This document shows, one piece after another, positions 3,309-20,659 of a stretch of 64,000 nucleotides of DNA. The stretch spans positions 10,139 through 74,138 of the forward strand of contig CADCNH010000004.1 in NCBI GenBank assembly GCA_902802755.1. Direction: 5' to 3'. The DNA is from an uncultured Bacteroidota bacterium (GTDB lineage: Bacteria > Bacteroidota > Bacteroidia > Bacteroidales > WCHB1-69). The position numbers and the translations under genes are program-made. Numbering within the stretch: the stretch's first letter is position 1; every line of letters starts with the position of its first letter. The notes under the pieces were generated by a model that worked only from the letters and a program-made list of their open reading frames with translations, was not told the DNA's origin and made no database searches.

Positions 3309-4814
3309 ATGAAAGAAAACTTGGTAATGAGCATGAATCCTTTAGTGAACTACTTGAAAAAGGATCCGAAAGAATTTACAAAAGCAGACATCATTAAGTA
3401 CATCGAAGAGAAGGAAATCCCGATGGTGAACTTCCATTATGTGGCTGGTGACGGTCGTCTGAAAACTCTGAATTTCGTGCTGAACAACCGCGAGTACCTC
3501 GAACAGATCCTGTCCGCCGGCGAGCGTGTTGACGGCTCCAACATCTTCCCCTCATTCATCCATGCCGGTTCCAGCGATTTGTATGTGATTCCGCGTTTCA
3601 GCACCGCTTTCTTGGATCCGTTTGCTGAAATTCCAACCATCTCCATGCTGTGCTCCTATTTCAACAAGGACGGCCAGCCGATGGAAAACTCTCCCGAATA
3701 CGTGTTGCGCAAGGCCGCCGATGCTTTCACCAAGGTGACAGGCATGAAGTTCCAGGCCATGGGCGAGTTGGAATATTACGTGATTGGCGACAAGGATGAT
3801 CTGTATCTGACTCCCGACCAGCGCGGTTACCATGAGTCCACTCCGTTCACCAAATTCGAAGAGTTCCGCAAAGAATGTATGCTGAACATCTCCAAGGTGG
3901 GTGGACAAATCAAATACGGCCATTCCGAAGTGGGTAATTTCACCATGGATGACAGGATTTTCGAGCAAAATGAGATCGAATTCCTGGTGACCGACGTGCA
4001 GGATGCCGCCGACCAGCTGGTACTGGCCAAGTGGATTATCAGAAATTTAGCTTATCAGTATGGTTTGGATGTCACTTTTGCTCCGAAAATCACCGCAGGC
4101 AAGGCTGGTAGTGGTTTGCACATCCATACCCGTATCGTCAAAGACGGCAAGAATCAGTATGTTACCAAAGGCAAGCTGAATACTATCGCTCATTCAGCTA
4201 TCGCTGGTCTCATGACTTGTGCTTCCTCGCTGACCGCTTTCGGCAACACCAACCCCACTTCTTACTTCCGCTTGGTGCCTCATCAGGAAGCTCCTACCTC
4301 CATTTGCTGGGGTGACCGCAACCGTTCGGTGTTGGTGAGAGTTCCGCTGGGATGGACCCACAAGAACGACATGGTAGCCATGGTCAATCCGATGGAAAAA
4401 CCCGCCCGTATGGACTTGTCACAGAAACAGACTGTAGAATTCCGTTGCCCGGACGGTTCCGCCGACATATACTTGCTCCTGGCCGGTTTGTGCGTGGCTG
4501 CCCGCCATGGTTTCGAAATGGAAGGTGCCCTCGAATTCGCTAAAAAAACATACGTGGATGTCAATATTCACAAGGCAGAAAACAAAGCCAAAATGGAAAG
4601 TCTGGCCCAACTGCCGACTTCCTGTTGGGAATCTGCCGACGAGCTTAGCGCCCACAGAGATATTTTCGAGCAACATGGTGTATTCAATGCCGAAATGATC
4701 GATGACATCATCAAGATGCTGAAATCATATAAAGACAAGAATATCCGTGAGGAAATCGCCAAACATCCTGAAAAGATGCTTGAGCTGGTACATGATTACT
4801 TCCACTGCGGATAA
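3309..4814 (+). CDS. glnA: Glutamine synthetase
   Basis: GELEYY, HSEVG, EQNEIEF, GKAGSGLHIH, SYFRLVPHQEAP, WGDRNRS and VEFRCPD motifs. Confidence 0.93.
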   Translation: MKENLVMSMNPLVNYLKKDPKEFTKADIIKYIEEKEIPMVNFHYVAGDGRLKTLNFVLNNREYLEQILSAGERVDGSNIFPSFIHAGSSDLYVIPRFSTAFLDPFAEIPTISMLCSYFNKDGQPMENSPEYVLRKAADAFTKVTGMKFQAMGELEYYVIGDKDDLYLTPDQRGYHESTPFTKFEEFRKECMLNISKVGGQIKYGHSEVGNFTMDDRIFEQNEIEFLVTDVQDAADQLVLAKWIIRNLAYQYGLDVTFAPKITAGKAGSGLHIHTRIVKDGKNQYVTKGKLNTIAHSAIAGLMTCASSLTAFGNTNPTSYFRLVPHQEAPTSICWGDRNRSVLVRVPLGWTHKNDMVAMVNPMEKPARMDLSQKQTVEFRCPDGSADIYLLLAGLCVAARHGFEMEGALEFAKKTYVDVNIHKAENKAKMESLAQLPTSCWESADELSAHRDIFEQHGVFNAEMIDDIIKMLKSYKDKNIREEIAKHPEKMLELVHDYFHCG

Positions 4815-4820
4815 TTAGTG

Positions 4821-4907
4821 AACAGGGGACAGGGGTCAGGTTACAGTAATCATATCTGACCCCTGTAACCTGTAACCTGTAACCTGAAACCTGAAACCTG
4901 AAACCTG
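4821..4907. repeat. Heptamer tandem repeats (CCTGTAA/CCTGAAA) with inverted upstream copies
   Basis: acaggggacaggggtcaggttacag...ctgacccctgtaacctgtaacctgtaacctgaaacctgaaacctgaaacctg. Confidence 0.85.
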
Positions 4908-4909
4908 AT

Positions 4910-5425
4910 ATGGAATTTGCCCTGTATATTATCGGAACATTCCTGGTGGCGGTGATTGTTTTTCTGACCGCCTTTTTCTCCATGCGCATGTTTATCAGAA
5001 ACGATGAACGTAAGCGTTTGCTGGAATTGAAAGAGCATAACAAGTCAGTAATAGCTCCTGTGCGTTTGCAGGCTTACGAGCGTATGGCCATGTTTTTGGA
5101 ACGTATCGAGCCCAATCAGTTGATTTTACGTCTGAATGACGGCAACACCCCTAACGCGAACTTGCGGATGCTGCTGATTTCCACTATCCGCGCGGAGTTT
5201 GAACACAATCTGTCACAGCAGATTTATATTTCTTCCGATGTTTGGAATCAGATTTGCAACGCCAAGGAGGAAACTATCCGTATCATCAATGTCAGTTCTG
5301 GCAAGATTGCCCAGGATGCACCTGGCATTGAGTTGGTGACTTCAATTTTGGAACAGACTGCAGGCCAGTCTCCCACAGCAGCGGCTATGGAGGCACTGAA
5401 AGAAGAAGTCAGGTTGATATTTTAA
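4910..5425 (+). CDS. Membrane-anchored hypothetical protein
   Basis: N-terminal TM helix followed by RLQAYER...FLERI.P and EFEHNLSQQIYIS..W, a pattern I recognise from Bacteroidetes hypotheticals. Confidence 0.8.
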   Translation: MEFALYIIGTFLVAVIVFLTAFFSMRMFIRNDERKRLLELKEHNKSVIAPVRLQAYERMAMFLERIEPNQLILRLNDGNTPNANLRMLLISTIRAEFEHNLSQQIYISSDVWNQICNAKEETIRIINVSSGKIAQDAPGIELVTSILEQTAGQSPTAAAMEALKEEVRLIF

Positions 5426-5620
5426 AACTGAAAACTGAAAGTTGAAAACTGAAAACTGAAAGTTTTTTAATGTGTTAATGTGCCAATTGAATTAGCAAAT
5501 TAGTTAATTAGCAAATGTGCAAATGAAACTGAAAAAACAATAACTATTAATTATTAACTATACTGCCCCTAATCACTAACCCCTGACCCCTAACCCCTGA
5601 CCCCTAAAACCTGAAACCTA
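5424..5620. repeat. Mixed 7-mer/8-mer intergenic tandem repeat tract
   Basis: (AAAACTG)n, then AATGTGCY/AATTAGYW octamers, then (CCCTRAC)n and AAACCTG units. Confidence 0.85.
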
Positions 5621-5627
5621 AAAATAT

Positions 5628-7922
5628 ATGACCAAGAAATTTATAGCGTTTTTCATCTTACTGACCAGTGCACTGTTTGGAATGGCACAAAGCACTGTGA
5701 AAGGTTTTGTCTATGATGCCACCAGTGGTGAGCCTGTGGGTTATTGTCCGGTGAGTCTGCAAGGCACAAGCTATGGTGCTATGACAGAATCTAATGGTAA
5801 CTTTATCATCGACAAGGTGCCGAAGGGAACTTATGTGCTGGTTATCAACTTTTTCGGCTATGACACTTTCACGGATACCATAGAGGCCACGGGGAAAATG
5901 ATTATCAAGCGATACATGATCAATCCGTCAAAGGTGTCATTGGATGAGGTTCAGGTAACAGCGGAGACAGACCGTAAGGTGCAGGAGACACGTACGGCTG
6001 TAATCAGTATCTCCCCTAAAGAAATCTCCAAAATGCCCGCCATTGGCGGCCAACCCGATTTTGCCCAGTATTTGCAGGTGCTGCCGGGTATTATCTCTAC
6101 TGGTGACCAAGGTGGACAGTTGTATGTGCGCGGTGGTACACCTATCCAGAATATGCTGCTGTTGGATGGTATGATTGTTTTCAATCCCTTCCATTCCATT
6201 GGTTTGTTTTCGGTTTTTGACATGGATATCATGAGTGGTGCCGATATTTACACGGGTGGTTTTGGCGCCGAGTTCGGCGGCAGAATCTCATCAGTTATGA
6301 ATATCAAAACCAAAGATGGCAACAAAAAACGCTTGTCGGGTAAGATAGACATAAGCAATATTGGGGCACAGGTGTTGTTGGAAGGTCCATTGGTGAAACT
6401 GAAAGAAGGACGCAAGACTTCCATGAGCTTTATTCTTTCAGGCAAAGGCTCTTTTTTGGAACAGTCTGCCAAAGTTTTTTATCCATACGTGAAGAATGAG
6501 AATGGCCTGCCATATAATTTCTTGGATTTGTATGGAAAAGTGACTATAGCATCCCAAGGTGGCTCCAAATTCAACATCTTCGGTTTCAATTTCATGGATA
6601 GGGTCAATTACAATACCTCTGTCCAGTATAACTGGAACAACTGGGGTGTGGGCGCCAACTTCCTACTGGTGCCCGGTCAGGCGAATACGACCATAGAGGG
6701 TGCTTTCTCTTATTCTGATTATGTTTCCAAAATCAATGACCCCGCATACCAGAACGAGGGTTCTTACAGCAAATATACTCATACTGGCGGTTTCAACTTC
6801 AGCATGGTGTTCAATTATTATGTGGGCCGTAGTGTGTTTAACATAGGCATCAATGCTGTGGGTTTCAATACGGAATATAGATATTGGACAAAATATGGGG
6901 AAAAAGAATATCCCAAAGACCATACCACGGACTTTTCAGCCTTTGTCAAGTATAAGTATAATTATAAAAACAAATTGCTGATAGAGCCTAGTTTCCGTTT
7001 GCAATACTACACCTCGCTGAGCAAGGTCTCTCCGGAACCGCGTTTGGCTTTGAAATATAATATTACCAAGCAAATCCGTTTGAAGATGTCGGGTGGTATG
7101 TACTCGCAGAATTATGTGGCCGTCACCTCCGACCGCGATGTGGTGAACTTGTTCTATGGCTATATTTCAAGCCCTTCCTCACTGAGTATTACGCCTACTT
7201 TGCCCAATGGAAAGAAGCCCAAACACAGACTGCAAACTTCGCAGCATGCGGTTTTGGGACTCGAATTGGATGTGCTGAAGTACACGAGCATCAATGTTGA
7301 GGGCTACTACAAGCATTTCTCTCAGTTGATTTCTGTGAACCGCTATATGATGGATGAGTCTGCCGATGAAATATTCATGTGGGAGCAAGGCCATGCGTTT
7401 GGTGGCGATATTTCCATCAAGTTTGAATACAAGGGCTTGTATCTCTGGGGTGTATATTCCTTGGGTTGGGTGAAGCGTACCGATACAGAAGTGACCTATT
7501 CGCCAAACTTTGACCGTCGCCATAATATTAATATTTTGGCTTCATACGCTTTCGGAAAACGTCGCTCCTGGCAGATTGACGTGCGTTGGAACTTCGGTTC
7601 GGGTTTCCCATTCACGCAGACCATGGCTTTCTATCCCAGCTTTGTTCCGAGTGGCGGCATTGGCGACGACATCATTCATGCCAACGAGGAATTGGATTTC
7701 GTGTTGGATGAGTTGAATGGTGGACGTTTACCAGCCTACCACCGTTTGGACATTGGCTTCAAGAAGAAATTCTTCATTGGTGAGCGCCACTCTATTGAAC
7801 TGAGCGCCTCACTGACCAATGTGTATAACTACAGCAACGTATTCTATGTGAACCGTATCACCAACGAGGTGGTATATCAGCTGCCCTTCCTGTATTATTT
7901 CGGGATGAACTGGAGATTCTAA
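5628..7922 (+). CDS. TonB-dependent receptor with N-terminal CarboxypepD_reg-like domain
   Basis: Signal peptide, VKGFVYD..SGEP, plug (LQVLPG...LYVRGG...QN..LLDG), GGF.AEFGGRISSV, LPAYHRLD and C-terminal aromatic (NWRF). Confidence 0.9.
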   Translation: MTKKFIAFFILLTSALFGMAQSTVKGFVYDATSGEPVGYCPVSLQGTSYGAMTESNGNFIIDKVPKGTYVLVINFFGYDTFTDTIEATGKMIIKRYMINPSKVSLDEVQVTAETDRKVQETRTAVISISPKEISKMPAIGGQPDFAQYLQVLPGIISTGDQGGQLYVRGGTPIQNMLLLDGMIVFNPFHSIGLFSVFDMDIMSGADIYTGGFGAEFGGRISSVMNIKTKDGNKKRLSGKIDISNIGAQVLLEGPLVKLKEGRKTSMSFILSGKGSFLEQSAKVFYPYVKNENGLPYNFLDLYGKVTIASQGGSKFNIFGFNFMDRVNYNTSVQYNWNNWGVGANFLLVPGQANTTIEGAFSYSDYVSKINDPAYQNEGSYSKYTHTGGFNFSMVFNYYVGRSVFNIGINAVGFNTEYRYWTKYGEKEYPKDHTTDFSAFVKYKYNYKNKLLIEPSFRLQYYTSLSKVSPEPRLALKYNITKQIRLKMSGGMYSQNYVAVTSDRDVVNLFYGYISSPSSLSITPTLPNGKKPKHRLQTSQHAVLGLELDVLKYTSINVEGYYKHFSQLISVNRYMMDESADEIFMWEQGHAFGGDISIKFEYKGLYLWGVYSLGWVKRTDTEVTYSPNFDRRHNINILASYAFGKRRSWQIDVRWNFGSGFPFTQTMAFYPSFVPSGGIGDDIIHANEELDFVLDELNGGRLPAYHRLDIGFKKKFFIGERHSIELSASLTNVYNYSNVFYVNRITNEVVYQLPFLYYFGMNWRF

Positions 7923-9514: not shown

Positions 9515-12500
9515 ATGAAAAAATTTACCTTTTTGATGATTCTCATGCTTTTGGCGGTATGCGGTATGATGGCGCAGGCTCCGGAGAAATTCACCTACCA
9601 GGCAGTGGTGCGAAATGCCAATAATCAACTCATGACGAATACGTTGGTTGGCGTCAGGGTAAGTATTATGCAGGGAAGTTCCACTGGCAGTGTGGTCTAT
9701 TCGGAAACGCAAATGCTGAGCACCAACGCCAACGGTTTGATGACACTGAATATCGGTGATGGGAATATTGTTTATGGCAATTTCAGTACAATAAATTGGG
9801 GAAACGGCCCTTTTTTCCTCAAGTCGGAGATTGACGTTTCTGGCGGCAGTAATTACACGATATCCTCCACGCAGCAGTTGCTGAGTGTGCCGTATGCTTT
9901 GTATTCGAGCAAGGCGGGCAATGTTCCGGCTTTTACGGTGGTGCCTACCGACACAGGCTATGTCATCAGCATCAGCCAAGATGGTACAGCAACACAAACC
10001 TTTGTACTTCGACATGGTGCTCCTGGTCCGCAAGGTCCACAGGGTGAAACCGGTCCGCAGGGTCCACAAGGTCCGCAAGGAGACCCGGGAGCCACTGGTG
10101 CTCAGGGTCCACAGGGAGATCCAGGGGCTACTGGTGCCCAAGGACCACAAGGTGATCCGGGTATCCAAGGTCCGCAAGGTGATCCAGGTGCTACCGGTCC
10201 GCAGGGTCCACAAGGCCAGCAAGGTATTCAGGGTGAACCAGGACCTGCGGGTTTTTCTCCTCAAGTAACTACTATTTCCGCTGGCGATAGCACGGTGGTG
10301 GTGGTTACGGATGCGGAAGCTCAGCATCGTTTTGTGATTTATAACGGTGCCCAGGGTCCACAAGGTGAGCAGGGTATTCAAGGTCCGCAAGGTCCGCAGG
10401 GTGAGACGGGTGCTATCGGTCAGCAAGGTCCGCAGGGTCCTCAAGGTGAGCAGGGTATTCAAGGTCCACAAGGACCTCAGGGTGAGACGGGTGCTACCGG
10501 TCAGCAAGGTCCGCAGGGACCTCAAGGTGAGCAGGGTATTCAAGGTCCGCAAGGTCCGCAGGGTGAGACAGGTGCTACCGGTCAACAAGGTCCGCAGGGA
10601 CCTCAAGGCGAGCAAGGTCCTGCGGGTTTCTCTCCGATGGTGAGCACCATTTCCGCTGGCGACAGTACGGTGTTGGTCATCACAGATGCGGAAATACAGC
10701 ACCGTTTCGTTATCTATAATGGTGCCCAAGGGCCACAAGGTGAGCCCGGTGTAGGAATACCTCAAACACTCTCTCTTGAGGGAAACAACTTGTCGATTTC
10801 TGATGGCAATAGTGTTACCCTTCCGAGTATTCCGACTAATGTGAGCGCCTTTACCAATGATGCGGGCTACCTCACCAGCGACTCCATTCCCACCAATGTC
10901 AGTGCCTTTGCCAACGATGCCAGCTACCTCACCTCCTTCACTGAAACCCAAACTCTCGCCGATGTGACCGCCCAGGGCAACTCCGCCGGCAACCGCCAGC
11001 TGAAGGACGTAGCCGACCCGACCGAAAGCTACGATGCCGTGAACCTGCGCTCGCTTACCCTGATGATAGACTCGGCAAAAAACACCATGCAGCAAATGCA
11101 ACAACAGTGGCTGCAAGCACAGCAGCAATGGCAGGAAACCCAACAGCAGTGGCAGATACAACAGCAACAAATGCAACAACAATGGCAAATGCAGCAAACA
11201 CAACTGCAACAGCAGATTGACAGCTTGACACTGATTCTTAATTCGATAGCAGCCGACACCGCCTTCGCTCTTTGGAACACCTCTGTTGTGAACAAGACGG
11301 CCTGTAGCGCATACGAGTGGCACGGAGAGACCTATACCCAAAGCGGAATCTATCTTTACGGCTTCACCAACACGGACGGCTCCCACAACATAGAGGCCTT
11401 GAATCTGACCATTATTGCGGCCGACTCCATCCATATCCCAAAGGAGGCTTGTGACAGTTATACATGGAATGGCACAACCTACACAGAATCAGGAGACTAT
11501 TATTTAAGACTGACCAACCAATATGGCTGTGACAGTCTCCGGATCCTGCACCTGACTCTTCATCATGGAACACACAATGTGGAAATTGATACCGCTTGCG
11601 ACAGCTATACTTGGCATGGTGTCACCTACCATGAAAGCGGTGTTTATACCTACGCATACTCGAATGAATATGGCTGTGAGAGTGTAGATACCTTGAAGCT
11701 GACCATTTATTACACTCATAAGATGGAGACAGAGATGGCTTGCGAAAGCTATACTTGGCACAATACAACTTACACTACCAGTGGCACTTATACTTACGCC
11801 TATAACAACGAGTACGGTTGTGCCAGTGTGGATACGCTGAAGCTGACAGTCTATCCAGTCACCCACCATACGGAGACGGAGATTGCCTGCGAATCTTATA
11901 TCTGGCATGATTCCACTTACACTACCAGTGGCACCTACACATACACTTATAATGACGAAAATAGCTGCGAGACGGTGGATACCCTGAAACTGACAGTGCT
12001 ATATGGCTGTACTATTGATGAAAAGTCTTGTCCAGGTACACCAATTCTCGTGGATTTTGACAACAATGGTTATAGCACCGTACAGATTGGCAACCAGTGC
12101 TGGATGAGGAACAACCTTCGCACCACGCATTTTGCCGATGGTACATCCATACCTTTCAGCAGCGGGATGTCTGTAGCAGCTCCCTATTATTACGACTACA
12201 ACGACATTAACTATACTGAGTTTACCTTGGCAGAACGGGGAATGCTCTACAACTGGTCCGCCGCCATGCATAGCACATCCTCAGTGCCGTCTAATTCTGT
12301 TGGTGTGCAAGGTGTCTGCCCCACGGGCTGGCACGTACCTTCCGACGGGGAGTGGGCACAACTCATTAACTATGTGAACAGCCAGGAGCAGAACAGATGT
12401 GGTGGCATTGATGGACAGATAGCGAAAACCTTGGCATCCACCACAGGTTGGGATAGGGGCTATTCCGGCTATGAATGTCTCGTGGGCAACTACCAAAATA

Positions 12501-15500
12501 CAAATAACACTACCGGTTTCAGCATTGTTCCGGCAGGCAGCCTGACACGTGCAGGTAATTATGACGGTCAACGATATAACGCTCTTTTCTGGACTTCTAC
12601 AGAAAAAGAAGAAGATGCCTCACAGGCATATCGTTGGAGTATAGGTAACAACAGCTTGGGTATGAGTAGTGGTGCAGATTATAAGGATTGTGGTCTATCT
12701 GTCCGATGCCTGCGCAATGAAAACGGTGGAAGTGGCGGCGATACCCCGGCACAAATGTCTGCTGTGATTACCGATAATCCCACCAATGTCTCCCCAACCT
12801 CTGCCACCTTCAACGGAATTATTACCAATAGTGGCAATGCAGGGGTAACGGAGCGAGGTTTTGTGTATGGTGTGGGAACTGTCATAACCGATACGGTTCA
12901 AGTGACAGGGTTAGATTTTGTCTTTACAGCCGGGAACCTTACCCCTAACACGGAATACAGCGTAAAGGCTTATATTATAAACAGTTCGGGTACGAGTTAC
13001 GGCCGCATGGTGAACTTCACCACTGCGTGGGAACCTCAGCCGTGGGACGGTACAGGCCGCAATCCCAACGATGCGCGTCCTTGCAATGGCACGCCAACAG
13101 TAACCGACCACGAAGGCAACGTCTATAATACCGTGCAAATCGGCACACAGTGCTGGACCAAGGAGAATATGCGTTGCAAAACATCTCCAAGTACAGGTAC
13201 TCTAATTTTGGAAACATCCTATTCCGCTTTCTGTCCATATACTGCCAAGAAGGCTTATTATTTGTATGGTGATTCCACCCTGAATACAAGTGTCTATGGC
13301 CTGCTATATAATTGGAATGCGGTGGTGGATACATTCAACACTAATTATGGTGAGACCGATTGGCATCCTTGGTGGGAAAATTCCACTTTGGCAGTGTCTG
13401 TCACCTTCAATGGCCACCGCAGGGGCATTTGTCCCCAAGGCTGGCATGTGCCTTCCGACTCGGAGTGGACGCAGCTTGCTAACTATGTGAACAGCCAAGA
13501 ACAATACCGCTGCAATGGAACTGATGGTTCCATCGCGAGAGCATTGGCCGCGCCCACAGGTTGGAGCAGCAATAGTAGTAGTAGTAGCGGTAATGGTTGC
13601 TGGTTGGCCAACAGCCCTGCAAACAACCAAACGGGATTCACGGCTGTTAACACAGGAGGTATTTACAGCAATGGGGTAAAATTTTGGTCTTCTACCCAAG
13701 TGGACCGAGGCCATGCGTGGAGTTGTGTAATGCCTACCGGAAATAACTATCCAGTGCTGAATCTTGAGTGGATTTATGAGAATGATAGAAGATCTGTCCG
13801 CTGTCTGCGTGATACAGGAACGGTAAACGGTGGTGGAAGTGTTGACCCTCAGCCAAACTGTAGTTCTTACACTATCAGTATCAGCGGTAATACAGTCCTT
13901 TGCAGCGGCGAAAGCACCACCCTTACGGCTTCCGAGGCTATCAGTTACAGCTGGAGCAATGGAAGCAGCGATGCCAGCATTAATGTCAGCCCAACTGCCA
14001 CTACCACTTATTCTGTTACAGGCACCAACAGCCAAGGCTGTATGGCTAACGCATCTACAACTGTAACGGTCAACTACGCCACCAATAATACCATCACCGA
14101 GACCGCTTGCGAGTCCTACACATGGCATGGGCAAACCTATACCCAAAGCGGCACTTACACATACGCTTATACCAACGACAACGGTTGCTCCAGTACGGAC
14201 ACATTATTCTTGACCATTTATAATGGCACACACAATGTAGAGACTGAAACTGCTTGCAACTCTTACACTTGGCATGGAACCAACTATACGGAGAGTGGTA
14301 CCTACACATATAATTACACCAATGGTGACGGGTGTTCCAGTGTAGATACACTGTTCTTGACCATTAATAATGGCTCCCATAATGTGGAAACGGAAACTGC
14401 TTGCAACTCATATACTTGGCACGGGCAGACCTATACCCAAAGCGGTACTTACACATACAGTTACACCAACGAGTATGGCTGCCCTTGCACGGAAACGTTG
14501 AATTTGACCATTAATCACGGTTCGCACAATGTCTTTACCGAAACGGCAGAAGGCTCCTACATTTGGCATGAGCAGACATATACTGAAAGTGGCACTTATA
14601 CCTATGCTTACACCAACGAGCAGGATTGCGCCAGCGTGGACACTCTCCACTTGACGGTTTCCTCCGTTACTCCCATTATACCCACGGATACACTCGTGGA
14701 TGGTCAACCTTGCCCCGGTACCCCCACGGTGACCGACCACGAAGGCAATGTATATAACACGGTGCAGATTGGCAGCCAATGCTGGATGAAAGAGAATCTG
14801 CGCACTACCAGTTACAGCGACGGAACATCTCTCTCTTTGAGCAGTATTTCTTCTACGGATAACGGTTATAACTACTACTATCCTTATTATTACTACCCTT
14901 ATAATGATTCGTCCAATGTACGTACATACGGACTTCTTTACAATGGGAAAGCTGTGATGCGCGACTATACTTTCTCTTCTTCCAATCCGAGTGGTGTGCA
15001 GGGTATATGTCCTGTGGGGTGGCATGTCCCAAGTGATATGGAATGGACACAATTAATAGATTATGTCTCCTCGCAGGACCAGTACAAATGCAGTTCAAAG
15101 TCCAAATACATAGCCAAGGCATTGGCTGATTCAACGGGTTGGCCAGCTGGTAATACTACTCCTTGTGCTGTTTCCAATAATCCTTCCAATAACAATCTCA
15201 CGGGTTTTTCAGCTTTGCCTGCCGGTTATTATGGCGAAAACTCTTCCGTCCGTAAGGCATACTTTTGGAGCACTGCCGAGGAAATGGGAATTTGTCTTCT
15301 TCCTAATAATCCTGCTATCTATAATAGTAGTTATGGTTCTTCCGTTCGTTGCCTTCGTGATGATGTGGCAGGTGACAGTGGAGGGGAAGGATCGCAACTC
15401 CTTACTGTGACTACTTCTTCTGTGACCAATGTCACAACTATGTCTGCTATTTCAGGAGGCAACGTCACCAATAGCGGAAACGCATCTGTAATAATGCGTG

Positions 15501-18500
15501 GTGTGTGTTGGAGCACCTTACCATCTCCGACTATAGTGGACACACACTCCATAGATGGTGCAGGAACAGGGGTTTTTACGAGCAATATCACGGGCTTGGA
15601 AGAGGGAAGTACCTATTATTTGCGCGCCTATGCTATCAATAGTACGGATACTTCGTATGGTGCCGAAGTGAGATTCACTACTTTAGTATCAAATGTTGCT
15701 AATGATGGACAAACCTGTCCCGGTGATGCTACTGTGACTGACATCGACGGCAATGTTTATAATACAGTGCGGATTGGTAACCAATGTTGGATGAAAGAAA
15801 ATTTGCGTACTACCCATTACAGCGATGGAACATCCGCCAATTTCTACTATCCAAATAACGATTCTTCAAAAGTGAGTACATACGGATGTCTATACAGCTG
15901 GAATGTGGCAATGCATGGAGCGTCCTCCTCGCCAACTGTTCCGAGTGGTGTACAGGGCATCTGTCCCGTAGGGTGGCATGTACCAAGCAATGGAGAATGG
16001 TATCAACTGACTTATTATGTTTCCTCGCAGGAAGAGTACCTGTGTAGTCCTAATACCTCTTATATTGGCAAAGCATTAGCCAGTACGACGGGCTGGGCTA
16101 TCAGCAACACCAATTGTCATGTAGGCAAAAAACCTGCTGATAACAATGCCACGGGTTTTTCAGTGCTTCCTGCTGGCTATTACTATTATGGTGAACTTAA
16201 GAATTTTGGCAGTCAGGCTTACTTTTGGTCTTCTACCGAAAGTAATGCGGGTGCGGCCTATGAACGGCAAATTTTTTACAACGGCACTGGAATGGGCAAA
16301 GTTTCTTACAACAAAAGTTATGGTTACTCCGTCCGCTGTCTCCGCAATACATCCGTATCCGAAATTGGTGGTGGCGACACCCCATGCATCGGTACACACA
16401 ATGTGGAGACGGAAAATACTTGTGAATCATTTACTTGGCATGGACAGATTTATTCCCAAAGTGGCACTTACACGTATGCCTACAACAACTCCGAAGGGTG
16501 TGCAAGCGTGGATACACTAAAACTGACTATTTATCAGCCAGTGGCCACGACAAGTTCGGCCACTGCGTGCGAGTCCTACACTTGGGGCGACACCACCTAT
16601 ACCGAAAGCGGAGACTACACGCAGACCTTCTCCGCCGCCAACGGCTGCGACAGCGTGGTGACGTTGCATCTGACGATTAATCAGCCGGTGGCCACGACAA
16701 GCTCTGCCACTGCGTGTGAGTCCTACATTTGGAACGGACAGACCTACACCCTGAGTGGTGACTACACGCAGACCTTCACCGCTGCCAACGGCTGCGACAG
16801 CGTGGTGACCTTGCACCTGACCATCTATCAGCCAGTGAACACAACAAGCTCTGCCACCGCATGCGAGAGCTACACTTGGCATGAGCAAACTTATACCCAA
16901 AGTGGCGATTACACGTACAATTACACCAACGAACACGGCTGCCCTTGCACGGAAACGTTGCATCTGACCATTAATCACGGTTCGCACAACGTCTTTACCG
17001 AAACGGCAGAAGGCTCCTACACCTGGCACGAACAAACTTACACGGAAAGTGGCACTTATACCTATACCTACACCAACGCCAGTGGTTGTGCAAGTGTTGA
17101 TACCCTCCACCTGACCGTCACTTCAAATCCTCCCACACCTCCTACTCCTCCCTCAGACACCATCGCTGACGGCTACCCCTGTCCCAATGCGCACACAGTA
17201 ACCGACCACGAAGGCAATGTGTATAACACCGTGCAAATCGGCAACCAGTGTTGGACCAAGGAGAACATGCGCTGCACCACCTCTCCCAGCACAGGTACCA
17301 CCATTTTAGAGGTCTATCCCAATGGCACCTCTTACACAGGCAAGAAAGCCTACTATGTGAACGGAAATTCCTACAACACCCCCTCATACGGACTGCTGTA
17401 CAACTGGAACGCGGCGGTCGATACATTCAACACGGCATACGGGGAGACTTCCACCAACTCAAACTCCAGCAATGCGGTGTCCGTCGCGTTCACCAGCTAT
17501 CGCAGAGGCATCTGTCCGCAAGGCTGGCATGTGCCCTCCGATGCAGAATGGACACAGTTGATAAACTACGTTTCTTCGAAGAGCCGGTACCAATGCGGCT
17601 CCACCGGCGGCTCTATCGCTAAGGCATTGGCCGACACCACGGGCTGGAATATATATTCCATTCCATGCGCTATGGGCAACGACCTTTCCGCAAACAACGC
17701 CACGGGCTTTAGTGCGTTGCCCGCAGGTGCCTACTTCGGTAGTTTTTACTACTTCGGAGATGCCGCTGACTTTTGGAGTACCACTTCAATCTACAGCAAC
17801 TCCGCCTACTACAAATACCTCTACTATGACTACGCCGGCGTATACCAAGACCTCGGCAATATATACTGCGGAATTTCCGTCCGCTGCCTGATGGACTCCG
17901 CTATCGGTAGTGATACCTTATGCATCGGCACACACAATGTGGAAATGGAAAACGCCTGCGAAAATTACACCTGGCATGGGCAGACCTACACCCAAAGCGG
18001 AACATACACATACGCCTACACCAACGACGGCGGGTGCGCCAGCGTGGACACGCTTTTCTTGACCATTTACAATGGCACACACAACACTTACACCGAATCG
18101 GCAGAAGGCTCTTACATCTGGCATGAGCAGACGTACAGCGAGAGCGGTACCTACATATACACTTACAACAATGCGCAGGGTTGTGCCAGCGTGGATACAC
18201 TCCACCTGACCGTTACTTCCGTCATTCCCGATATTCCTGATGGACCGGCAGAAGACGGTCAGCCTTGTCCAGGTGTGAATGCGGTGACCGACCATGAAGG
18301 CAATATGTACAACACCGTGCAAATCGGCAACCAGTGCTGGACCAAGGAGAACATGCGCTGCACTACCTCGCCTACCACGGGAAGCAATTTGCTAACAGAA
18401 AACACTTCGGCGGCAAGCAAGTCGGCGAGTTGGCATTCCGACAACGGTTTGCATGATCCAGCCTACGGAGTACTCTACAATTGGTGTGCGGCTTTAGACA

Positions 18501-20659
18501 CCTTCTTCGCCGCAGGGGGCGCTCCCGAAGTTGCAAACGGGACATCAACCCAGAAGTTGAATTATTCATTCAGTGGCTATCGCAGGGGTATCTGCCCCAT
18601 AGGATGGCACGTGCCCGGAAAAACGGAATGGACACAACTGGCAGCGTATGTATATAGCAACGGCTACCGTTGCAGCGACTGTTCCTATCCGGAACTTGAT
18701 GAGTATAGTGCTTCTTGTATTGTCAAAGCATTGTCCTCCACCACTGGCTGGGAGACCGACGACTATGAGTGCGCGGTGGGCAACGATTTGTCTGCTAACA
18801 ACGCCACGGGTTTCAACGCTATGCCTGCTGGCCGTTATAGTGGCAACAACTATAGCGATTTTGGCGATTACGCTTACTTTTGGACCGCCACTGAGGATTA
18901 TGACCAATATAGTACCTGGGCATATTATCTCAATTGGTCTTATTATGAAACTGACTTTCATTTCCAAAACGAAACTCCAAAAGCCAATAAATTCTCTGTA
19001 CGCTGCGTGAAAGACGACACTTCTGGTGATGGTGGTAGCGACACGGGTTGTACCGGCACACATACTTCAGAGAATGTAAACACTTGCGAATCATACACTT
19101 GGCACGGATATACCTACACAGAAAGCGGCACTTACGTTTTCTTTTACACCAATGCGCAAGGCTGTTCTTGCTCGGAAACGCTTCACCTGACCATCTATGA
19201 AACAGTGCACTCGGTCAACTCAGCCGAAGCCTGCGAATCCTACACCTGGCACGGGCAGCCCTATCTTTCTTCTGGCACATATACATATAACTACGAAAAT
19301 GAATTTGGCTGCGCCAGCACGGAAACACTGAATCTAACCATTTATAATGGCACGCATACAAACTTTTCGGCCCAGGACTGCGAATCCTATACCTGGCATG
19401 GCACCACCTACAACGCAACTGGCTCATACACGTATAACTATACCGATGAGCATGGTTGTGCCTGCTCAGAAACCCTGAATTTGACCATCCAAGAGCATTT
19501 GAATTTGACAACCGCAGCCGGAGCTTGTGAAGAATACAATTGGCGCGGGCAAACACTTACGGCAAGCGGCTCCTATACTGCTGATTATATCAACGATCAT
19601 GGGTGCTCTTGCACGGAAACGCTGAACCTGACCATCTATAATGGTACGCACAACAACTATGCGGAAACAGCTTGTCCAAATTATAATTGGCATGGTGTAG
19701 TTTATGACCAAAGCGGAGTATACACATATTCCTATACCGATGAACATGGCTGCGCAAGTGAGGATGTACTCCACCTGACCATTTCCTCCGATTGTGAATA
19801 TAGCAATCCTTGTCCTGGCACACCTACTGTGACCGACCATGAAGGCAATGTGTATAATACGGTGCAAATCGGTAGCCAATGCTGGACAAAGGAGAACATG
19901 CGCTGCACCACCTCGCCGAGCACGGGCAGCAACCTTATACCCGATTGGATATATTCCTCTGGCTGCTTCGATTCAGAATTCAGCAAGTGTGCGATGTATT
20001 CCGATCGTTTTTCGCAAGATTCTGCATACGGAGTGCTCTACAATTGGTGTGCGGCCATGGATGTTTATAATACGTCTTATCCCGAAATTCATGATGGATC
20101 CTGTGGGGGTAGTGATTCAACAGAAGAATGGATATACACTATCACCAGTCAACACAGAGGCATTTGTCCACAAGGATGGCATGTGCCTTCCACCGATGAA
20201 TTCCATCAATTAACAACTTATCTCTATGATAGCGTCGGATATCAGTGTGGCAATGACTGTTATGCCTTCATTATGGGAAACACAGTCAACTGCATTGCCA
20301 AGGCGTTGGCAGATACAACGGGATGGAACATTGACGATAACACATCAGGGACACCTGTCTGGATGGGAGGAACCTGTTCTGTTGGCTACGACCTATCCTC
20401 CAACAACGCCACAGGATTCAGTGCGTTGCCCGCCGGATTTGCAGGAGGAGGTCACGGCGATCAAATAGACGATTACCATTGGATTTTCTACCCCTACGTT
20501 TACCGTTCCGGTGAAAGAGCCTGCTTCTACTCTTCCACTTCTACTCCCTCTTCCGGCCAGTACTACTTTCAAATAGACTATGATACAGCCGCAGTGAAAC
20601 ATCAAGATGATATTATTGGAATCAAAGGACATTCCGTCCGCTGTGTGAAGGATGAATAA
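9515..20659 (+). CDS. Giant secreted fibre-like protein 1 (3714 aa): SVPYAL N-domain, collagen repeats, Q-rich coiled coil, 21 Cys-containing ~49-aa repeats, FN3/Ig-like domains and 7 Fib_succ_major (FISUMP) domains
   Basis: Sec signal peptide; GXY runs; seven copies of D..GN.Y.TV.IG.QCW...N.R ... G.CP.GWHVP ... SVRC; ACESYTWHG...GC.SVDTL.LTI repeats. Confidence 0.9.
10016..10756 (+). repeat. Collagen-like Gly-X-Y tract with two beta-rich interruptions
   Basis: (GPQ/GEQ/GET/GAT)n with 63-bp repeated units; interruptions [28 protein letters not shown]. Confidence 0.9.

Follow-up and report, generated by a model that had tools for sequence, protein, structure and literature searches.

Can the products of a hypermutating retroelement persist in a gene that the retroelement does not serve? 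The question is raised by a stretch of 64,000 nucleotides (nt) from an uncultured Bacteroidota bacterium (positions 10,139 to 74,138 of contig CADCNH010000004.1, GenBank assembly GCA_902802755.1), which is referred to here as the window. A giant open reading frame (ORF) in the window encodes a protein with seven FISUMP (Fib_succ_major, PF09603) domains, the fifth of which (D5) holds a segment that is rich in tyrosine and in codons ending in C. On the basis of this pattern, the initial annotation of the window proposed that the domain is or was the target of a diversity-generating retroelement (DGR). The evidence collected here indicates that D5 is not a live DGR target, and it has none of the parts of one. 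The segment is instead read as a fossil variable region (VR) that is now fixed under purifying selection, a reading to which a probability of roughly 60% can be assigned.

The Giant Reading Frame and Its Fifth FISUMP Domain

The ORF, delimited by reading of the frame and by profile searches, occupies positions 9515..20659 of the forward strand and encodes 3714 residues beginning with a signal-peptide-like N-terminus. Besides the FISUMP domains, the protein contains collagen triple-helix repeats (PF01391, E 8e-23), a Q-rich stretch and many Cys-containing repeats of about 45 residues. PF09603 matches it in seven stretches with 673 bits against a cut-off of 33.9 (E 3.5e-204), which places the protein in the family and bears out the numbering of the initial annotation, D5 being the fifth stretch. 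According to the profile match and an AlphaFold2 model, D5 corresponds to residues 2558-2794 (17186..17896, forward strand), and on its own it scores 104.2 bits on TIGR02145 (cut-off 41.65). The seventh domain is the C-terminal one in the protein, and the gene was plainly made by module duplication.

The pattern is concentrated in 47 codons at 17729..17869 (forward strand), in frame with the giant ORF, where the encoded peptide is set in an LPAG...FWS...SVRCL frame. A recount gave exactly the numbers first reported: C is the last letter of 30 codons and a pyrimidine that of 40, and 12 codons encode Tyr, 11 of them as TAC. In the ORF as a whole, the fraction of codons with C at the third position (C3) is 0.326 and that with a pyrimidine (Y3) is 0.641, while Tyr accounts for 7.5% of the residues and TAC for 0.48 of the Tyr codons. 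Among all 47-codon windows of the ORF, 0.98% equal the segment in C-ending codons (30), 1.5% in pyrimidine-ending codons (40), and 0.6% in Tyr residues (12). As so few windows reach these counts, the D5 segment is unusual within its own gene. The ORF extends for about 2.7 kb past the segment, which is thus internal and not at the 3′ end of the gene, as the initial annotation had already remarked.

A second C-rich patch is found in the same ORF outside any FISUMP domain (10829-11065, forward strand), with up to 32/47 codons ending in C and 43/47 in a pyrimidine. Since this patch is as C-rich as the D5 segment, D5 is not alone in having a C3-rich patch.

A Diversity-Generating Retroelement in a Congener

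A DGR cassette was located in a congener, G009, when relatives were searched with a VR-like segment that lies on another contig (C23) of the window's own genome. In the coordinates of the G009 locus (L025, G009:C65:14000-24000), the FISUMP target recognized by ORF reading is at 3417-4949, and its VR occupies the 3′ end of the gene (4757-4949). The VR is followed by the template repeat (TR) of 193 nt (5237-5429), which was defined by comparing the repeat with the VR, and then by an Avd-like gene (5449-6186) and a reverse transcriptase (RT) gene (6190-7311). TR and VR differ at 27 positions, 27/27 of which are adenines in the TR, and the TR encodes the peptide FSALPAGNYNNGNYNNFGNNANFWSATENNDNNAYNRNLNYNNANVNRNNNNKNNGFSVRCLRD. 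The RT matches RVT_1 with 54.7 bits (cut-off 29.6). For the accessory gene, the matches to DGR Avd models are in its C-terminus and stay below the respective cut-offs, with 33 bits on NF033474 (E 5.7e-8) and 23 bits on PF22296. A hairpin, AGACCGC...GCGGTCT, is present 3′ of the stop codon of the VR (z -4.4; 0/200 shuffles fold as well). The G009 locus is a bona fide DGR targeting a FISUMP domain.

The existence of this cassette within the genus agrees with the premise of the initial annotation that Fib_succ_major domains are reported DGR targets, and so do two published studies. In the excerpted text of PMC5758913, Fib_succ_major is part of target category 'd' (DUF1566/DUF823/Fib_succ_major), which makes up 14% of DGRs, and in that of PMC4159848 nine Fib_succ_major variable proteins are described from human microbiomes. 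A literature search pairing diversity-generating with PF09603 found nothing. Among 152 genomes of the family, 25 contain matches to the G009 RT at E <= 1e-20, of which eight are weak, with E between 1e-36 and 1e-21; several of the weak hits belong to RTs of other types that lack a FISUMP-type TR. Within the genus, two of nine genomes have a match, and that of G009 alone is strong.

Just 3′ of the G009 TR, at about 5451-5482 of L025, there is a palindrome of about 30 nt. Copies of it, in either orientation, are present on many contigs of the window's own genome (C8:21186-21216, C8:28227-28258, C39:4125-4157, C1:273635-273676, C10:3734-3781, C3:108979-109008 and C44:12489-12519). It looks like a repetitive extragenic palindrome (REP)-like or terminator repeat.

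Codon Footprint and Mosaic Structure of D5

The D5 segment aligns collinearly with the G009 TR over 17707..17896 (forward strand), as the equivalent of a VR, with one 3-nt gap. The sites at which a footprint is to be sought are in this way set externally, as the 25 D5 codons that are aligned to Asn codons of the G009 TR, the bulk of them within 17729..17869, and 43 paralogous domains were compared at the same columns. In DGR adenine mutagenesis, template AAC and AAT codons are turned into NNC and NNT, and K, E, Q, M and W are unreachable along the path from AAC to NNC. At its 25 sites D5 has 22 NNC codons, 3 NNT codons and no other, the highest NNC share of the 43 domains, and the residues that they encode (AFSYYDADIYNSYYYDYGYDLGNYC) include no K, E, Q, M or W. 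The clear VR class comes next, with counts of NNC, NNT and other codons of 21/4/0, 20/5/0, 20/5/1, 19/5/2 and 17/8/1. In the remaining 37 domains, NNC codons number 16 or fewer and other codons two or more. When evaluated against the C3 of the N-terminal part of D5 itself, the footprint has a binomial P of 3.1e-5.

The same columns stand out among 73 homologues, which are mostly single-domain proteins with VR-like C-termini. In particular, the 25 columns aligned to template Asn have an entropy of 3.16 bits versus 0.99 in the other TR-covered columns, and K, E, Q, M and W amount to 3.1% there versus 14.1% elsewhere in the domain. The D5 segment belongs to the DGR-diversifiable class of FISUMP domains.

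D5 is also a mosaic. Its N-part is nearest to D2 (67% at the amino acid level) and groups with D2, D6 and D7, all in the same protein, while its C-part is nearest to two genes located elsewhere in the genome and described below, C9a (64%) and C56 (59%), with LYYDYA in common where the TR has LNYNNA. In a nucleotide sliding window, the switch of affinity takes place around codons 120-180. The footprint might also have been written in place, if D5 or its ancestor was retrohomed while it was still C-terminal and the modules that now follow were added later, a course of events that needs no recombination. The gene lends itself to this explanation, as it was built by module duplication and has its seventh domain at the C-terminus, and the homologues include many single-domain proteins that combine an N-part of the D5 type with a VR-like C-terminus. 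However, the two parts of D5 group apart, the N-part with D2/D6/D7 and the C-part with the VRs of other genes, so that import of the C-part fits better than in-place writing; moreover, no trace of an initiation of mutagenic homing (IMH) sequence or of a hairpin is left. Writing in place is thus considered improbable, and the diversified C-part would rather have reached D5 from another gene.

Absence of Retroelement Parts and Conservation of the Segment

The assembly of the window's genome (G000) consists of 69 contigs and is 88% complete, so that the failure to find DGR parts in it leaves their absence unproven. Within this assembly, the RVT_1 (PF00078) profile and the G009 RT protein each gave 0 matches, and tblastn of the G009 RT and Avd-like protein returned nothing below E 0.07. 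The remark of the initial annotation that neither RT nor template repeat is visible can be extended from the window to the assembly, which yielded neither an RT or Avd gene nor a TR. The RT query found no match in the genome of a further metagenome-assembled genome (MAG), L072, although an empty answer there is uninformative. A blastn search at word size 7 with 17650-17950, along the lines suggested for finding a template, retrieved only paralogous FISUMP domains at 58-66% identity.

The hairpin or cruciform 3′ of the VR reportedly has a role in recognition, as attributed to Guo et al. 2011. The linker that follows D5 (17897..17960, forward strand), through which the ORF goes on, has no DGR-type hairpin (z -1.2; 18/200 shuffles fold as well), and about 10 positions in the last 27 nt of the D5 segment, as judged by eye, differ from the 3′ end of the TR.

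Comparison between genomes points in the same direction. The G009 orthologue (G009:C5:1-1056, L030; also L070) is 95% identical over positions 17245-18300 of the window and 97% in the VR-like segment. Its five differences within 17714-17896 (17722, 17725, 17731, 17764 and 17875) are all synonymous and in third positions. The third MAG (L072) also has five differences from the window (17725, 17782, 17788, 17854 and 17875), all in third positions, with an identical peptide. Collectively, the D5 segments of G000, G009 and L072 have eight distinct variable sites, 8/8 of them synonymous third positions, and an invariant peptide. The linker just downstream, at 17909-17946, has first- and second-position, non-synonymous changes between genomes. 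Beyond these genomes, the D5 stretch is present in 20 runs from 15 studies, mostly of ruminant or other gut samples. In three of them, each from a separate study, a single spanning contig carries exactly the G009-type synonymous changes: X3 (record 7, 5 other letters), X6 (record 21, 5 other letters) and X4 (record 17, 6 other letters). X2 also has one spanning contig, in which among the rows listed only 17875 differs; as it has 27 other letters overall, it was not counted. Thus the biased variation at codon positions 1-2 that had been predicted for D5 is found neither between the three genomes nor, at the level of contigs, in X3, X4 and X6. Moreover, G009 has an intact DGR and yet its D5 is unchanged, which indicates that D5 is not a current target.

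Stretches in the neighborhood of the G009 DGR locus have 79-91% identity with the corresponding stretches of the window's genome, versus 95% for the adhesin segment. The adhesin segment at 17245-18300 is unusually conserved or recently exchanged between the two species representatives.

These data bear on the possibility that D5 is a live remote target, whose TR and RT are simply missing from the 88%-complete assembly. The assembly is indeed incomplete, three other genes of the genome look recently serviced with no cassette in sight, and DGRs are able to act on remote targets according to the excerpted text of PMC5758913. Nevertheless, three genomes, among them the one with an intact DGR, encode an identical peptide, as do the contigs of three further studies; the segment lacks a TR-like 3′ end and a following hairpin; and its position inside the gene contrasts with that of VRs, which is at the 3′ ends of genes. 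A live remote target is so improbable as to be close to refuted. The statement of the initial annotation that the domain is a DGR target does not survive these results, namely the lack of an adenine-only template, of RT or Avd and of a hairpin, together with the invariant peptide.

The Possibility of an Ordinary Binding Loop

It may be that D5 was never touched by a DGR, and that the segment forms an ordinary binding loop of a FISUMP domain, with a Tyr/Asp/Gly/Ser-rich composition selected for its ligand and with C-endings that derive from local codon usage. Several observations favor this explanation and weigh against a past as a VR. First, the initial annotation had cautioned that the whole domain is C-rich at third positions, and the remainder of D5 does have 81/170 C-ending codons (C3 0.48; TAC 8, TAT 5), with C3-rich windows running on to about 17984. 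Second, 17/25 footprint codons encode Y, F, D, N or C, whose two-fold boxes make them NNY by necessity, and C/(C+T) is 0.88 at the D5 sites versus 0.74 in the D5 N-part. Given these forced residues and the local preference for C, part of the signal is amino acid composition plus codon usage. Third, other domains that are not VRs are Tyr-rich as well (D4 0.20, D6 0.19).

The divergence from the TR is a further difficulty. The D5 segment mismatches the G009 TR at 38/64 adenine and 44/126 non-adenine positions; the non-adenine value of 0.35 falls within the range of ordinary paralogues (0.29-0.56), while the clear VR class has 0.06-0.17. The third bases of D5 equal those of the TR at 19/25 sites versus 22-24 in the VR class. 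A near-perfect NNC pattern with so much non-adenine divergence is surprising, unless D5 comes from an unsampled TR lineage. Such a template did not emerge from the searches that were made: the scan of the window's genome with D5 tiles for templates with adenine-only mismatches performed no better than shuffled controls; the best of the TR-like segments near 29 RT-hit loci of the family still has 29% non-adenine mismatch to D5; and the scan of genome_contigs with the exact 21-mer at 17876-17896 gave no D5-matching TR, but two orthologues (L070, which is a G009 contig, and L072) and one unrelated match. The adenine-only template that the initial annotation had called for was consequently found neither in this genome nor in related ones. 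Furthermore, all the runs considered above were examined as Logan contigs, which hide rare variants.

The unrelated match is in L071:1499-1521, a MAG in which 23 nt are identical to window positions 17874-17896 in a frame full of stops. As about 0.3 chance hits are expected in 596 Gb by our own arithmetic, it was treated as a chance match.

Composition and codon usage do not account for the whole pattern, however. Domains with an equally C3-rich background fall short at the same columns, as C32|1844 has 83/161 C-ending codons but 10/26 at these sites, and C32|858 has 65/150 but 11/25. The codon bias is therefore found outside the region, in the rest of D5, but similarly C3-rich domains are devoid of the footprint at the columns aligned to template Asn. 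In addition, D5 is the extreme of the 43 domains, with zero NNA or NNG codons at the sites; the eight codons among the 25 that belong to four- or six-fold boxes, where NNY is not imposed, are all NNY; and the protein sequence of the C-part is nearest to true VRs. An untouched binding loop thus appears unlikely, albeit a serious contender. As to the other proposal of the initial annotation, that D5 was a target or was shuffled in as a diversified domain, it is the best reading of the data and finds support in the 25/25 NNY codons, the homology to the TR and the mosaic structure, but it is not proven.

True and Probably Decaying Variable Regions in the Same Genome

When the 45 full FISUMP domains of the window's genome were compared for their codon signature, N-part versus C-terminal segment, a small group was found to share the signature of D5 in the same segment but not in the N-terminal parts, within one common peptide frame. 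C9a (C9:12749-12941, reverse strand, L004) has a C3 of 0.71 in the segment versus 0.29 in the N-part, with 12 TAC and 1 TAT codons; the segment on C23 (C23:50392-50581, reverse strand, L003) has 0.69 versus 0.30, with 12 TAC and 0 TAT. The values are 0.68 versus 0.36 for C56 (C56:716-907, forward strand, L001), 0.57 versus 0.26 for C19 (C19:1001-1191, forward strand, L002), and 0.54 versus 0.29 for C28. C9b (C9:53015-53203, reverse strand) is an older VR-like segment without a hairpin.

Comparison with the G009 TR separates adenine from non-adenine mismatches in these segments. C23 has 26/64 adenine and 8/126 non-adenine mismatches, C9a 24/64 and 10/126, C56 34/66 and 13/127, C19 32/65 and 21/125, and C9b 30/66 and 21/127. 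C56, C9a and C23 clearly qualify as VRs of the G009 TR type. In the 460 nt upstream of their segments the three are merely 73-79% identical at the nucleotide level. In the TR-covered part, differences between them number 8-10 among the 125-126 non-adenine sites, an identity of 92-94%, and 30-33 among the 64 adenine sites, a difference of about 50%. The combination of divergent N-parts and shared non-adenine sites indicates that one TR type rewrote several paralogues. The hairpin after the stop codon is kept in C56 (z -4.6) and in C9a (z -4.1), where 0/200 shuffles fold as well, and there is none after the VRs of C23, C19 or C9b. The C23 gene is the orthologue of the G009 cis target (91% identical in the N-terminal 465 nt), and the 50 kb for which its contig continues downstream contain no DGR cassette. 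As RT, Avd and TR are lacking from the assembly, C56, C9a and C23 are orphan or recently serviced targets.

C19 and C9b look like decaying VRs in which diversification is over. In particular, C19 has 17% non-adenine mismatch, and its 89%-identical orthologue in G005 (L079) differs by three residues in the VR peptide. C19 shows that fossil VRs do exist in this genome. A scan of the whole assembly for adenine-only templates with tiles of the five other VR-like segments returned the segments themselves, paralogous VRs and A-rich tracts, at a level equal to shuffled controls.

The contig G004:C176 (L009) had been considered as an orthologue control for C9a. It was dropped as uninformative, being 100% identical to C9:12601-13700 of the window's genome over 1100 nt, although the two genomes are presumed to represent separate species; the identity could stem from a shared or mis-binned contig or from a very recent transfer. 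As regards the assembly, two of the contigs begin part-way through a FISUMP gene (C56:1-213 and C19:1-213); they have their 5′ sequence in common, with 89% identity, and the ORF starts at base 5 in each. As contigs break at a repeated N-terminal module, the copy number of FISUMP genes is probably under-assembled.

Predicted Fold of D5

The AlphaFold2 model of D5, based on an alignment of 74 sequences, has a pLDDT of 95.6 and a pTM of 0.92. VIA-align compared it with 48,161 chains, giving Z values that are middling by the tool's own note. The matches include PvdO (5hha, Z 8.7), the DGR variable protein TvpA of Treponema denticola (2y3c, Z 8.6, root-mean-square deviation (rmsd) 3.8, 174 aligned residues), CarF (5aoh, Z 8.6), the C-terminal domain of Legionella Lcl (8q4e, Z 7.5), Thermus TaqVP (5vf4, Z 7.0, rmsd 3.3, 155 aligned) and Mtd of a Bordetella phage (1yu0, Z 6.8, rmsd 3.8, 139 aligned), followed at lower ranks by a long tail of C-type lectins with Z of about 5. 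Foldseek of the model on the PDB gave nothing at E <= 0.001, and a sequence search of the PDB with D5 gave 0 hits. The list of matches is coherent, and the fold predicted by the model is C-type-lectin/formylglycine-generating enzyme (FGE)-like, as in DGR variable proteins. The Tyr-rich segment may represent the putative ligand-binding face of one of the seven lectin modules of a collagen-stalked surface protein.

Proposed History and Significance

The history that the fossil reading suggests can be outlined as follows. The D5 segment would be the C-terminal, ligand-binding half of a C-type-lectin-like FISUMP module in a secreted or surface protein of ruminant-gut Bacteroidales, and most likely descended from the DGR-diversified VR of a sister FISUMP gene. 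In that gene, template AAC and AAT codons would have been converted to NNC and NNT, yielding a surface rich in Tyr, Asp, Gly and Ser. The diversified half may then have joined an N-half of the D2/D6/D7 type, by recombination or domain shuffling, or through old retrohoming in place. At present D5, which has no cognate template, 3′ hairpin or RT, would act as a binding module of fixed specificity whose peptide is kept constant by purifying selection. Of this history, the homology, the codon footprint, the mosaic structure, the stasis and the lack of DGR parts are shown by the data, and the origin of the footprint from a DGR, the import route and the role in binding are inferred. In its most specific form, the proposal is that D5 is a frozen, domesticated binding site evolved by a DGR, which a giant multi-lectin adhesin acquired from a small C-terminal FISUMP gene and which then stayed unchanged across species; for this form, the odds are about even.

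The targeting of Fib_succ_major lectin domains by DGRs is already in print, and the principle is not new. D5 adds a concrete, testable case where the products of hypermutation may outlive the retroelement. Four stages can be recognized in one genus: the intact cassette of G009; the orphan VRs, with a hairpin in C56 and C9a and without it in C23; the decaying C19 and C9b; and the conserved, internal D5. If the fossil reading is correct, the genus displays the whole life cycle of DGR targets, and the output of DGRs enters the normal evolution of rumen Bacteroidales surface proteins by domain shuffling. Footprints of this kind would then show how specificities selected through DGRs become fixed parts of multi-domain rumen surface proteins, and NNY at columns aligned to template Asn could reveal past DGR activity in genomes without an RT. 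For annotation, a DGR-like codon pattern alone is insufficient to call a live target. The more interesting by-products of the analysis lie outside the window, namely the orphan VRs, of which those on C56 and C9 bear a hairpin and that on C23 has none. A literature search for fossil, orphan or inactive VRs returned nothing specific, and no claim is made that they are absent from the literature.

Comparison with Known Systems

The closest described relatives are the CLec2 VRs of category 'd', exemplified by Legionella LdtA, as far as the excerpted text of PMC5758913 portrays them. D5 resembles them in having a PF09603 domain with the VR-equivalent at its C-terminal end, which finishes in ...SVRC.., is templated on Asn and is Tyr-rich, as well as in a predicted fold like that of DGR variable proteins. 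Unlike them, D5 is internal to a protein of 3714 residues, is invariant between genomes, and is devoid of a cognate TR and a hairpin, with no RT or Avd in the assembly.

Within the genus, D5 is collinear with the VR of the G009 cassette and with C56, C9a and C23, apart from one codon gap, and has PAG..FG..FWS..AY..L.Y..A.V..G.SVRC in common with them. D5 and the G009-type VRs are also alike in having NNY at every template-Asn codon. The two differ in the non-adenine mismatch to the TR, which is 35% in D5 and 6-10% in the G009-type copies, and in a number of fixed residues, where D5 has STTS, K, Q and CLMD and the G009-type VRs have SATE, R, R and C(L/V)RD, respectively. At a greater distance, the D5 model is comparable to TvpA (2y3c), TaqVP (5vf4) and Mtd (1yu0), with which, at a sequence identity of only 8-12%, it is predicted to share a common C-type-lectin/FGE-like fold.

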